The position numbers were made by a program, and so were the translations under genes. Shown in pieces: positions 32,959 through 33,745 of a stretch of DNA of 64,000 bases. Each line of letters opens with the position of its first letter. Position 1 is the stretch's first letter. Under the pieces are notes generated by a model, which was not told the DNA's origin, ran no database searches, and was given only the letters and a program-made list of their open reading frames with translations. The stretch is taken from NCBI GenBank assembly GCA_964456475.1, contig CAYVZI010000004.1:7604-71603 (forward strand), given 5' to 3'. This DNA is from an uncultured Candidatus Saccharibacteria bacterium. Lineage in GTDB: Bacteria; Patescibacteriota; Minisyncoccia; Phycocordibacterales; UBA9973.

Positions 32959-33181
32959 ATGTAAGTTAAACAGGTTTCAGTGTAAAAAAACAAAGAACTG
33001 GGTAAAAGTATGTGGAAAGGTGGTGTGAATAATTGTGTTTAGTGTGAATAAAGGAATCTATAATTTAGTAAAAAATAAAATGGTGTGTATAAACTACGAG
33101 TTTCAAAATGGTTACTAACAGTAAAATGTTATAAAGGTTATACACATGTATAAGTTTTGTGGATAAGTTACAATATATAAT
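32959..33181. promoter_or_regulatory. candidate oriC: AT-rich dnaA-dnaN intergenic region with at least 5 DnaA-box-like 9-mers
   Basis: TGTGGATAA (perfect, about 33158-33166), TTATACACA (about 33138-33146), TGTGAATAA x2 (about 33024-33032, 33043-33051), TGTGTATAA (about 33084-33092). Confidence 0.5.
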
Positions 33182-33745
33182 ATGATTGATTTCAACCAGC
33201 TATACAAATGGGTAAAAATTGAAACTGGTATTGATAGACAAGAGATTGTATCAAAAACCAGAAAACAGAAGGTTGTTACTGCTCGAGCGTTGTTTATTAC
33301 AATGGCTTCAAAAACTGGGTTCTCGTATAGTTCTATAGCAAAAGAATTAAAAAGAGATCATACTTCTATTTTACACCTTATAAATACACGCTCTGAATCA
33401 GAATTTATAAATAGAGTAGTAGGGAAATATGATTTAGAAATAAAAAAAAATTATTCCAATAATGAAGAAAAAATTAAACAACAATTACGATTTAGAGGAT
33501 TAACAAATGGTAAAAATTCTTATAAGTCGGTTTATGAGAAATATAATGGTAAATGTATGGTTTGTAGTTTTGATGAAGTTGTAGAAATTCATCATATAAT
33601 TCCAAGATATTTAGGTGGTAGTGATGAATTAGAAAATCTTGCATTGCTTTGTCCCAACCATCACGCATTAGCTGACAGGGGAGCAATTCAAATTAAAGGA
33701 AAATTGGAACTTATCCACCAAGAAATTGGTAATCCACAGGGTTAA
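33182..33745 (+). CDS. fusion of a DnaA domain-IV-like DNA-binding HTH with an HNH endonuclease
   Basis: N-terminus KVVTARALFITMASKTGFSYSSIAKELKRDHTSILHLIN parallels DnaA domain IV of the adjacent dnaA ([42 protein letters not shown]); C-terminus CMVCSFDEVVEIHHIIPRYLGGSDELENLALLCPNHHALAD is an HNH motif. Confidence 0.65.
   Translation: MIDFNQLYKWVKIETGIDRQEIVSKTRKQKVVTARALFITMASKTGFSYSSIAKELKRDHTSILHLINTRSESEFINRVVGKYDLEIKKNYSNNEEKIKQQLRFRGLTNGKNSYKSVYEKYNGKCMVCSFDEVVEIHHIIPRYLGGSDELENLALLCPNHHALADRGAIQIKGKLELIHQEIGNPQG

Follow-up and report, generated by a model that had tools for sequence, protein, structure and literature searches.

Free-standing HNH homing endonucleases of phages, such as T4 MobE and enzymes of the I-HmuI type, are among the closest described parallels to the gene reported here (for the MobE concept, see PMC2790892). 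They too are encoded by small intergenic HNH genes that are AT-rich relative to their carrier and occur sporadically at one locus among close relatives. However, they are carried by phages rather than by phages and a bacterial chromosome, they lie between conserved protein-coding genes rather than in an origin unwinding module, and a targeting HTH of the DnaA domain IV kind, as present here, is not known from them; the cassette discussed below is also predicted to bring compensating initiator-binding sites, which they do not. With regard to genomic position, the HNH proteins of the HK97 gp74 / N.phiGamma type are the nearest counterparts: the phage members of the family described here share their location directly upstream of terS-terL-portal, and a zinc-HNH core of the form CxxC...CxxH is common to both (PMC3592412). 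Yet, our family adds an N-terminal DnaA-type HTH of ~70 aa and a helical linker where the gp74-type proteins have zinc ribbons or nothing, and its chromosomal copy resides in oriC without terminase neighbours.

The HTH itself shares its predicted fold and the residues R399, D433, H434 and T435 with domain IV of DnaA, for which DNA complexes from E. coli (1J1V) and M. tuberculosis (3PVP) as well as the B. subtilis BUS complex (8BTG) are available. It differs in being detached from DnaA domains I–III, with no AAA+, oligomerisation or unwinding function, in standing N-terminal to a nuclease and in being only 24–30% identical to bona fide DnaA. A similar logic is found in I-TevI, in which a nuclease of short specificity is tethered by a linker to an HTH and cuts away from the binding site, although I-TevI is a GIY-YIG rather than an HNH enzyme, its domain order is reversed and its HTH belongs to an unrelated family.

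Within the window, i.e. the whole 64,000-nt stretch of DNA analysed here, a 187-aa ORF at 33182..33745 on the plus strand combines a DnaA-domain-IV-type HTH, a helical linker and a zinc-HNH nuclease; its coordinates and peptide segments had been given in an earlier note on this DNA and were reproduced exactly. This HTH-HNH gene is best read as a foreign cassette of at least 0.6 kb and of phage ancestry inside oriC of a Nomurabacteria-like (Paceibacteria, CPR) chromosome. On its left lies dnaA (31597..32958, plus strand), which encodes the 453-aa host initiator with the Pfam domains DnaA_N, Bac_DnaA and Bac_DnaA_C and is outside the mobile cassette; on its right, dnaN (33769..34866, plus strand; 365 aa, Pfam DNA_pol3_beta domains 1–3) flanks the origin. 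The order dnaA-ORF-dnaN is as had been stated, but the ORF starts 223 bp, not 200 bp, from the dnaA stop codon. A divergent rpmH-rnpA-yidD-yidC-jag cluster upstream of dnaA and a cumulative GC-skew minimum at ~26–30 kb in the window support the placement of the origin.

The two domain calls of the earlier note, a DnaA-domain-IV-like HTH and a complete HNH motif, both hold. The profile comparison it had proposed for the N-terminal region returned a significant match to Bac_DnaA_C (PF08299; 45.4 bits, cut-off 31.5, E=8.2e-12), which covers residues 9–68 (coding region 33206..33385, plus strand) and profile positions 6–67 of 69; the same domain is precomputed for 29 of 30 family members. The HNH nuclease (residues 125–171; coding region 33554..33694, plus strand) is recognised by the Pfam profiles HNH (PF01844; 37.1 bits, cut-off 21.4, E=3.6e-9) and HNH_2 (PF13391; 29.8 bits, cut-off 21, E=5.4e-7), and its best sequence matches in the PDB are the HNH domains of IscB, a group II intron maturase and McrA. 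Its motif CxxC...HH...N...CPNHH, with the zinc ligand pattern CxxC...CxxH, is invariant across the family: C125, C128, H138, N152, C157, H160 and H161 are the same in all 28 family sequences compared, and H137 and N159 are retained in at least 90% of them. The AF2 model reaches a mean pLDDT of 86, with residues 1–90 above 90. Foldseek places the N-terminal 93 aa of this predicted structure closest to 3pvp_A, 1j1v_A and 8btg_B (TM 0.74–0.77, rmsd 2.4–2.8 Å) and superposes the C-terminus on the HNH domains of IscB, McrA and TagI. The protein is not a full-length DnaA paralogue: the AAA+ domain III and the N-terminal domain I are absent, with no Pfam match to PF00308 (AAA+) or PF11638 in the 187 aa, and its TIGR00362 match of 30.7 bits is far below the cut-off of 343.9.

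Aligning 12 family members with residues 374–467 of E. coli DnaA identifies R27, R35 and D59-H60-T61 as the counterparts of R399, R407 and D433-H434-T435. The R399 position is occupied by arginine in 11 members and by lysine in one; R407, D433, H434 and T435 are retained in all 12, H439 in nine, and the P423 position is mostly Ser. In E. coli DnaA, the DnaA box is read by R399, which enters the minor groove, and by the recognition helix 434–451, at whose start D433-H434-T435 lie, and the conserved contact set includes residues that read TTA and TnCACA (PMC5742627). On the basis of these contact residues, the HTH is predicted to bind the DnaA box TTATNCACA, and the intact active site predicts that the HNH domain nicks or cleaves DNA. 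The ORF would hence encode a modular site-directed nuclease, in which a helical linker joins a copy of DnaA domain IV to a zinc-HNH catalytic domain.

The surroundings of the gene are rich in candidate binding sites. Five DnaA-box-like 9-mers with at most one mismatch to TTATCCACA start at 33024, 33043, 33084, 33138 and 33158, the last of which is perfect; these are five in 143 bp versus ~0.04 expected from the mean of 17.4 per 64 kb in shuffles of the whole window (Poisson P ~1e-9), while the whole window holds 25 such sites. This cluster had been reported before as a single entity upstream of the ORF. Its existence is confirmed, but its parts differ in origin: the native portion at 33010..33052, with boxes at 33024 and 33043 (TGTGAATAA), is still homologous (91–93% nt identity) to the HNH-less relative L015, whereas the perfect box at 33158 is part of the inserted cassette.

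Directly before the dnaN ATG lies the native unwinding module (33739..33768, plus strand). Together with the adjoining box it reads TAATCCACA-GGGT-TAATAGTAATAGTAA-tttatatatat-ATG(dnaN), that is, a GC spacer (GGGT, 33739–33742), five DnaA-trios (TAA TAG TAA TAG TAA, 33743–33757), the first of which doubles as the stop codon of the HTH-HNH ORF, and an AT-rich run (33758–33768) that abuts the start codon. A regular expression for this pattern yields just three matches on both strands of the 64 kb, the unwinding module among them, and the succession of boxes, a GC spacer of 2–4 nt, TA[A/G] trios and an AT-rich run is kept directly 5′ of dnaN in ~40 Paceibacteria loci. A BUS is defined by one or more DnaA boxes, no more than 16 bp of spacer and three or more DnaA-trios inside oriC (PMC8287927), and the module at the insertion site shows each of these elements, its trios being 5′-TAG/TAA on the strand shown. 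This BUS-type layout fits a predicted opening of the strands at the trios by DnaA. Scanning 32900–33850 for promoter and terminator consensus sequences gave six promoter-like sites versus 5.8 expected, i.e. no promoter signal; any promoter or operator at this locus is therefore putative. In an Rfam scan of 31000–35500, no RNA element was found, the matches being sub-threshold and confined to a terminator-like hairpin at ~35150.

The cassette sits between the tandem DnaA boxes of this unwinding module. Its junctions were delimited by blastn of the window against L015, by an alignment of filled and empty alleles and by comparison of the left flank with L015 and with L005, a second host that carries the gene. 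The block without BLAST homology to the empty allele spans 33053..33732 (plus strand) and measures 680 bp in the window versus 122 bp in L015. At a minimum, the insertion covers 33148..33732 and comprises 585 bp in place of 1 nt. The uninterrupted site of L015 reads ...TTATACACAT-T-TCCACAGGGTTAGTAGTAATAG... (empty-site sequence GAGTTATACACATTTCCACAGGGTTAGTAGTAATAGTAATTTATATAT). While the right junction is sharp (33732/33733), the left one may fall anywhere in 33053–33148. As to possible co-conversion of flanking markers, the ~45–95 bp that precede the minimal insert on its left side are closer to the filled L005 than to the empty L015, in an AT-rich region where the alignments depend on gaps.

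Both ends of the cassette carry DnaA boxes. The left-junction elements (33138..33166) comprise the box-like 9-mer TTATACACA (33138–33146), an inverted repeat, TTATACA-CA-TGTATAA (33138–33153), that straddles the junction, and the perfect box TGTGGATAA (33158–33166, minus orientation), which lies 16 bp before the ORF's ATG. At the right end, the last 12 codons of the ORF include a box pair (33711..33738, plus strand) made up of TTATCCACC (33711–33719), a 10-nt gap and TAATCCACA (33730–33738), with the cassette/host junction inside the second box. The Leu-Ile/Met-His codons in these boxes use CTT and CAC in 8/8 genes, as opposed to 18% and 35% elsewhere in the same genes, and this constrained codon choice indicates that the cassette boxes are functional DNA. 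The earlier note had overlooked the two boxes in the final codons, the trios and the AT-rich run, as well as the phage origin of the gene and its position between the tandem boxes.

Among 48 Paceibacteria dnaA loci from a genome scan, plus L005, the gene is carried by the window species and L005 only. The 45 loci that retain dnaN and are devoid of the gene have dnaA-dnaN gaps of ~135–290 bp, barring three with fragmented matches. L015 has a DnaA that is 100% and a DnaN that is 97% identical to those of the window, its flanks agree at ~92–93% of nucleotides, and still its site is empty; in all, precise empty sites occur in relatives whose DnaA is 90–100% identical. The synteny check that had been suggested thus returned the patchy distribution of a homing-like element. 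Four independent samples yielded an identical protein in an identical gene arrangement. The composition of the gene is foreign: its GC content of 30.3% is the lowest of the 45 window ORFs (41.8 +/- 3.3%; z-score -3.5), GC3 is 18% versus 37%, and GC is low in L005, too, and below that of every phage contig carrying the gene. Between the two host copies, dN/dS is 0.077; they share 73% aa identity, versus 76% for DnaN, and pS amounts to 0.73 for the HNH gene versus 0.85–0.95 for dnaN and dnaA, at synonymous sites that are saturated and differ in GC and thus do not serve to date the transfer between the two host lineages. Given the foreign composition, the absence from ~45 related origins and a family that is mainly phage-borne, the gene is not a host origin factor, and the same observations speak against one of the two functions that had been proposed, namely that of a nuclease or nickase residing at the origin to process it or to control the initiator.

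The HTH-HNH family is small and unnamed, with 61 clusters among 1.84 billion representatives, and its members reside predominantly in phages: 12 distinct contexts were examined, and in ten of them the contig is phage-like and terS-terL follows shortly after the gene. With PHROGs, terL was confirmed in L071, L007, L010 and L068 (E 1e-9 to 1e-26), while terS was matched by PHROGs in L071 alone, and weakly; Pfam detects a terminase large subunit in L240, and L237 encodes an Sf6-type small terminase. A position immediately upstream of terS-terL was found in L007, L010, L068, L071 and L240, whereas no terminase gene stands beside the window copy between dnaA and dnaN. In the tree, the two host copies group together in a single clade that falls within the phage copies, and the chromosome most likely acquired the gene from a terminase-adjacent phage copy.

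The DNA around the phage genes is similar, too. The phage copies share an upstream box cluster, and the string TTATnCAC-TT-GnATAAC ... TGTGnATAA ... TATATAAT precedes the gene in L068, L071, L007 and L238, the repeat of L238 (TTATGCA-CT-TGCATAA) showing a compensatory change. The same box / 10 nt / box layout as in the window is seen in L237–L239, and the 3′ end of the phage copies continues, as in the window, as box / 10 nt / box / 4 nt / trios / AT-rich, and a box-trio-AT element separates the HNH gene from terS. Phage and host modules are near-identical over ~35–45 bp. Searching viral contigs for empty-site phage relatives with the terL of L071 recovered no close one; the 17 terL relatives found (43–50% identity) have a different layout, lack both the HNH gene and a box-trio module in front of terS, and are too distantly related to be used as empty sites. 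In viral contigs, seven loci match the exact pattern TTATCCACA-N4-(TAR)x3-TA, of which L243 and L247 alone resemble real non-coding box-trio modules. Both are free of the HNH gene; it is thus optional for viral box-trio modules, and these two unrelated phages show nothing further.

Considering this evidence, we regard it as somewhat probable that the gene stems from a phage and encodes a free-standing HNH endonuclease of the homing type, with DnaA-box origin modules as its target. The HTH would dock on the DnaA boxes of a BUS-type box-trio module, as its conserved contact residues suggest, and the HNH domain, its active site being intact, would nick or cut near the boxes. The break could then be repaired from a cassette-bearing copy via short homologies, provided by the boxes on its left and by the box-trio-AT element on its right, whereby the gene would be copied into the site; the outcome of such a step is visible as precise filled and empty alleles and as junctions that are the same in phage and host. 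Finally, the boxes of the cassette—the perfect 5′ box and the two in the last codons—would rebuild the box pair by the trios, and the invaded origin would keep working, as may be inferred from the DNA-level constraint on codons and the persistence of the filled allele. Two hallmarks of homing genes are evident: a sporadic presence at one site with clean empty sites in the 45 dnaN-retaining loci, and a foreign composition together with a horizontal origin, reflected in the GC z-score and the nesting in the phage clade. Of the two functions suggested earlier, a homing endonuclease that uses DnaA boxes is therefore the better supported, owing to the patchy distribution and the precise empty sites. 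Cleavage of the empty allele, the defining step of homing, is predicted from sequence. A bare DnaA box, however, cannot be the whole target, since such boxes are frequent, as the 25 sites in the window illustrate.

Several observations count against homing. The filled allele keeps a box pair beside the trios, which makes its immunity hard to explain; the transferred block lacks a sharp left boundary; and the viral contigs searched contain no closely related empty-site phage. The phage gene, moreover, occupies the classic position of terminase-associated HNH genes (PMC3592412), which suggests a role in packaging, instead of or besides homing. As to the two host lineages, vertical descent combined with precise losses through recombination with empty alleles is possible, too, given that the host copies are about as diverged as DnaN.

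If the position in the phages is taken at face value, the protein could be a packaging accessory of the HK97 gp74 / N.phiGamma type, whose HTH sits on box-like repeats at a cos or pac site between the HNH gene and terS and aids the cutting of concatemers. The chromosomal copy would then be stranded, a product of recombination between phage and origin modules or of integration followed by deletion, with neither homing nor a role in the host. Many phages do have an HNH gene by the cos site and the terminase genes, and such enzymes are nickases (PMC3592412); in most phage contexts the HTH-HNH gene likewise lies upstream of the terminase genes, the box-trio-AT element is exactly where cos would be, and the ~35–45 bp of near-identity could support the recombination. 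Yet, in two lineages with saturated synonymous sites the host copies are intact, have kept all catalytic residues and are under strong purifying selection, which one would not expect of a remnant without function. Even in its phages the gene stands out by a foreign composition, as selfish genes usually do, and the host copy has no accompanying terminase gene. Known terminase-associated HNH proteins are ~100–130 aa long and have no HTH (PMC3592412). When contig ends were taken to stand for the termini of phage genomes, there was also no consistent sign of a physical end at the box-trio-AT element. We rate the packaging role as rather unlikely.

The same purifying selection would suit a domesticated, beneficial origin-associated factor: a protein that competes with or modulates DnaA at the boxes to control initiation, one that cuts the box-trio modules of incoming phages, or an insertion that immunises the origin against a phage nuclease. 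Phages with look-alike origin modules exist, the arrangement recurs identically in the four samples, and the perfect box 16 bp 5′ of the ATG overlaps the likely promoter region, where DnaA control or autoregulation is possible. Nevertheless, domestication appears quite improbable. The gene is missing from ~45 related genomes, including one with an identical DnaA, and is thus not part of the normal origin machinery; a regulator needs no intact nuclease site; partner genes are absent from the vicinity; and PADLOC reports matches to the HNH core only (DpdF, type IV REase) and no known defence system. Hardly credible is an invention on the spot, in which a duplicated dnaA domain IV was fused in place to an HNH domain to form a lineage-specific DnaA paralogue. 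The gene is adjacent to dnaA, and the two have PF08299 in common. The similarity to the neighbouring DnaA domain IV is modest, at 30% identity over 53 aa (E=3e-4), so that the parallel drawn previously reflects domain homology, and a local duplication is rejected by this low identity, the foreign GC and the nesting of the host copies among phage proteins of the same two-domain architecture, their closest relatives; the clean empty sites in close relatives and the lack of an AAA+ domain point in the same direction.

In a more speculative and clearly unlikely scenario, phages of Paceibacteria (CPR) would carry a full mimic of a bacterial origin, and the gene would not be simply selfish: its product would be an enzyme that acts on origins, led to box-trio modules by the recognition code of the initiator. 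The phage arrangement of box cluster, gene, tandem boxes, trios and AT-rich run may correspond to a bipartite oriC layout with the HTH-HNH gene replacing dnaA. Nicks made by the enzyme would then serve to prime or resolve the replication or packaging of the phage, or the enzyme would cut the host oriC and halt host replication, and the chromosomal insert would be the footprint of a conflict, i.e. an origin rendered resistant by splitting and repaired with cassette boxes.

Should the protein indeed read DnaA boxes and cut beside them, a mobile nuclease would have borrowed the recognition domain of the initiator to home into origins, a target that occurs in essentially every bacterium and was thought too constrained for insertions. 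Judging from this locus, the unwinding module of a chromosome can tolerate a split of 0.6 kb and stay in use, apparently thanks to replacement DnaA boxes that the invader carries inside its own reading frame. Furthermore, the box-trio-AT modules of uncultured CPR phages are almost the same as the origins of their hosts, which opens host-DnaA-dependent phage replication and origin-targeted host shut-off to direct testing. A compact HNH protein of ~185 aa that is guided by DnaA boxes would also represent a natural ‘HTH-nickase’ scaffold of a kind that has been engineered artificially.

The earlier note knew of no description of this fusion. Our literature searches, which covered the fusion itself, HNH or homing elements in oriC and phage DnaA-trio modules, agree in that nothing relevant was found, whereas sequence databases already carry domain annotations for the architecture. 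One Anabaena paper among the matches just lists unrelated HNH-RT genes. When 50,697 deposited phage genomes were searched by tblastn, no record covered at least 80% of the protein, and the fusion is thus missing from cultured or deposited phages; the best partial matches were to T4-type MobE and other annotated homing endonucleases, and the top PHROG was phrog_655, ‘homing endonuclease’.

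The ORF at window positions 33182..33745 (forward strand), reported in an earlier note, is real: it encodes 187 aa, contains all the peptide segments quoted there and lies between dnaA (31597..32958) and dnaN (33769..34866), for which every Pfam domain of DnaA and DnaN, respectively, was matched. Together with rpmH-rnpA-yidD-yidC-jag, which lie divergently upstream of dnaA, and a cumulative GC skew minimum at ~26-30 kb of the window, this gene order identifies a canonical origin region. The assumed host, a CPR/Patescibacteria bacterium, agrees with the labels on relatives of the window DnaA (Candidatus Nomurabacteria, Paceibacterota, Parcubacteria). 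Titles of these Paceibacteria contigs among TPA_asm records (L014, L015 and others) disagree and are unreliable for taxonomy: L014, whose sequence is that of the window, appears as 'uncultured Gammaproteobacteria bacterium', whereas 'Candidatus Saccharibacteria' is the title of many others and 'Nanoarchaeia archaeon' that of one.

The proposed architecture, a DnaA-domain-IV HTH joined to an HNH nuclease, is borne out by Pfam, with Bac_DnaA_C (PF08299) at residues 9-68 (E=8.2e-12, 45.4 bits, cut-off 31.5) and HNH (PF01844, E=3.6e-9) plus HNH_2 at residues 125-171. NCBIfam and PHROGs returned these two modules only, the top PHROG being a 'homing endonuclease' family. In an AlphaFold2 model built from 28 family members (mean pLDDT 86), the best PDB matches of the N-terminal 93 residues (Foldseek) are DnaA DNA-binding domains on DnaA-box DNA, i.e. 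3pvp from M. tuberculosis and 1j1v from E. coli (both within TM 0.74-0.77 and rmsd 2.4-2.8 Å) as well as the B. subtilis origin-opening complex (8btg), while the C-terminal part resembles HNH domains from IscB, McrA and TagI. Alignment of the family to E. coli DnaA residues 374-467 revealed that the equivalents of R399, R407, D433, H434 and T435 are retained and that of H439 usually is; P423 is mostly replaced by Ser. In DnaA, R399 recognises the box's TTA and the helix from residue 434 its TnCACA, and box binding is abolished by R399A and by T435M (PMC5742627). The HNH/zinc residues C125, C128, H137/H138, N152, C157, N159, H160 and H161 are invariant or nearly so. The ORF product is a two-domain protein that combines a DnaA-type HTH carrying the box-reading residues with an intact HNH, and we infer that the former would bind DnaA boxes and the latter would cut near the boxes so bound. 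As no AAA+ domain was found in it (Pfam, NCBIfam), it is not a DnaA paralogue. Local duplication of dnaA domain IV was rejected as the source of the HTH because its identity to domain IV of the neighbouring DnaA is only 30%.

All five DnaA-box-like 9-mers described upstream of the ORF are present (33024, 33043, 33084, 33138, 33158), whereas ~0.04 would be expected by chance in a stretch as long as this cluster. At the other end, the boxes TTATCCACC (33711) and TAATCCACA (33730) fall within the ORF's final 12 codons and are followed by a GGGT spacer, five TAA/TAG triplets (33743-33757)—the first of which is the ORF stop codon—and an AT-rich run abutting the dnaN start codon. In the bacterial basal unwinding system (BUS), one or more DnaA boxes are followed by a short spacer rich in GC, by three or more DnaA-trios and then by the unwinding region, the commonest trio being 3'-GAT-5' (PMC8287927), i.e. 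5'-TAG-3' on the window strand. Judged by its sequence, the arrangement from the ORF's 3' end to dnaN matches this definition. A BUS-type module is also found directly upstream of dnaN in ~40 related Paceibacteria genomes, where the native box pair is tandem with an 8-bp offset, (T)TATCCACAT(A/T)TCCACAG. In the window (33758-33771) and about 12 of its closest relatives, the dnaN start ATGATATTC adjoins the AT-rich unwinding element, no Shine-Dalgarno sequence can be recognised before it, and the first dnaN codons are kept at the nucleotide level between species with 63-97% DnaN identity. A second box-trio-like element (31522-31575; the regex matched just three times across the 64 kb) holds the boxes TTATCCCCA and TTATACACA (offset 11), then TTTTTCACA-t-TAGTAATAATAA; because it lies just upstream of the dnaA start, the origin may be bipartite, flanking dnaA at both sides.

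Using the window DnaA as query and one genome per species, we retrieved 54 loci. Synteny in related CPR genomes, which the earlier note had proposed to check, proved patchy: two origins are filled, with dnaA-dnaN gaps of 814 bp (the window species, L014) and 765 bp (L005, DnaA 90% identical), against 45 empty loci retaining dnaN, in 42 of which the gap is ~135-290 bp (496-802 bp in the remaining three, which have fragmented matches). Among the empty alleles are L015, with DnaA and DnaN 100% and 97% identical to the window proteins, and L016, L017 and L018 (DnaA 96%, 94% and 90%). The empty site reads ...TTATACACAT-T-TCCACAGGGTTA(A/G)TAGTAATAGTAATTTATATATATATG and the filled site of the window ...TTATACACAT/GTATAAG...ORF...GGTAA/TCCACAGGGTTAATAGTAATAGTAATTTATATATATATG (slashes, junctions), which puts the ORF precisely between the paired tandem boxes of this unwinding module, with clean empty sites in close relatives. 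BLAST homology between the window and L015 (92-93% nt) ends at 33052 and restarts at 33733. The right junction is sharp and the left one lies somewhere within 33053-33148; in AT-rich, gap-dependent alignments, the final ~45 nt before the minimal insert seem closer to the other filled allele than to the empty one. The final ORF codons, (N)PQG, and the stop codon are supplied by host origin sequence.

The ORF is foreign in composition and of phage ancestry. Its GC content (30.3% vs 41.8 +/- 3.3%) is the lowest among 45 window ORFs of at least 150 aa, and its GC3 is 18% vs 37%; the L005 copy is likewise AT-rich relative to its neighbours, as is the family gene relative to every phage contig carrying a homologue. 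The family is small: a search of 5.8 billion proteins yielded 30 with the same architecture (35-73% identity), just one of them named by its source (the generic JGI label 'predicted restriction endonuclease'), and searching 1.84 billion cluster representatives with a profile gave 61 matches at E<1e-30, nearly all full-length (~140-230 aa). Two of the 12 distinct genomic contexts inspected are dnaA-dnaN sites and 10 are phage-like contigs, where the family gene is usually followed directly by a small ORF, a large terminase subunit (terL in PHROGs, lowest E 3e-26) and a portal-sized ORF. By neighbour joining, the two host copies group as a single clade inside the phage copies. No full-length fusion was found in 50,697 deposited phage genomes, the best partial matches being annotated homing endonucleases, T4-type MobE among them.

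The phage copies are embedded in a similar DNA element. A DnaA-box cluster precedes every phage family gene examined, with a conserved junction string, TTATnCAC-TT-GnATAAC ... TGTGnATAA ... TATATAAT, just before the ATG, and box/10 nt/box/4 nt/TAA-TAG repeats/AT-rich 'tttatata' run occurs at the 3' end or just beyond. The right-hand box pair of the window, with its 19-bp offset, is of this phage type rather than the native 8-bp-offset type. Part of the junction string, an inverted repeat at the left cassette junction (TTATACA-N2-TGTATAA, 33138-33153), is conserved just upstream of the HNH gene in the phage-like contigs L068, L071 and L007, and in L238 (~1500-1545) both arms carry a compensatory change (TTATGCA-CT-TGCATAA), suggesting a dimer-binding operator or recognition site. 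The first 3' box is encoded by Leu-Ile/Met-His, with the codons CTT and CAC in 8/8 genes, although elsewhere in these genes CTT makes up 18% of Leu and CAC 35% of His codons; the box is thus kept at the DNA level and not just as peptide, and the conserved C-terminal 'EL(I/M)H...(N/Y)PQ' is probably a by-product.

How the ORF came to lie in the origin can be explained in several ways. A cut by the HNH near DnaA boxes could have driven insertion, and the cassette's own boxes would keep the invaded origin functional; we lean slightly towards this homing-type explanation. Against it, DnaA boxes are too frequent to form the entire target, the filled allele still contains a box pair, and the two host copies (73% amino-acid identity) have diverged much like DnaN (76%), so that a single old acquisition, later lost precisely when empty alleles recombined in, is as possible as repeated homing. 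The synteny of the phage members is reminiscent of terminase-associated HNH proteins, which have a known role in cos cleavage (PMC3592412). Such cleavage might be the primary job of the family, with the box-trio-AT module being or overlapping the packaging site and the chromosomal copy a recombination by-product; we regard this main alternative as rather unlikely. Homing and packaging are not mutually exclusive. Selection between the two host copies is strongly purifying (dN/dS 0.077). A domesticated or defensive role for the host copy appears quite improbable.

In its predicted function, the ORF protein resembles T4 MobE (PMC2790892) and similar free-standing HNH homing endonucleases, as well as modular nuclease-HTH tethered enzymes. 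Unlike these and the terminase-associated enzymes, it uses the initiator's own DNA-binding domain, sits in a replication-origin unwinding module and carries presumably compensating initiator-binding sites in its coding sequence. The earlier note knew of no such fusion, and our literature searches turned up neither this fusion nor a homing-type element in oriC, nor phage box-trio modules carrying a DnaA-C/HNH gene of this kind.

Further uses of DnaA domain IV outside DnaA are predicted for three proteins from the profile search, namely P0076 (673 aa; five tandem Bac_DnaA_C copies), P0086 (1680 aa; at least eight copies, and an IS200-like Y1 transposase domain at the N-terminus) and P0131 (1052 aa; seven matched stretches). 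Directly upstream of its DnaA_C-HNH gene, L238 has another gene (998-1327), whose 109-aa product is a stand-alone Bac_DnaA_C protein (PF08299, E=1.6e-12); such phages therefore use more than one detached DnaA-box-reading domain. Two other phage-like contigs with family members carry unusual genes: L237 encodes a 539-aa Cpn60/GroEL-like protein (3784-5403) with the HNH gene on one side and an Sf6-type small terminase on the other, and L240 an RVT_1 reverse transcriptase (434-1444) 2.5 kb upstream of the family gene. Box-trio modules also occur without the family gene in two unrelated viral contigs, L243 (1400-1900) and L247 (reverse strand, ~3239-3262), as DnaA-box clusters with TTATCCACA/4 nt/TAA-TAG trio/AT-rich sequence, that of L247 in a ~460-bp non-coding gap between patatin-like and PhoH-like genes; both are candidate host-DnaA-dependent phage origins.

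Beside the origin, the near-identical strain L002, in which DnaA, HNH and DnaN are the same proteins, carries one additional ORF (132 aa, 5783-6181, without Pfam match) between dnaN and an 86-aa ORF, a second indel polymorphism relative to L001 and the window (34867-34888). Finally, a strong hairpin (aaaaaccagcgccttaggcgctggttttt, 35145-35232) 3' of the 86-aa ORF, followed by a tandem 'ctttataaa' repeat and yielding only sub-threshold leader matches in Rfam, is probably a bidirectional terminator common to the 86-aa ORF side and a convergent PBP gene.
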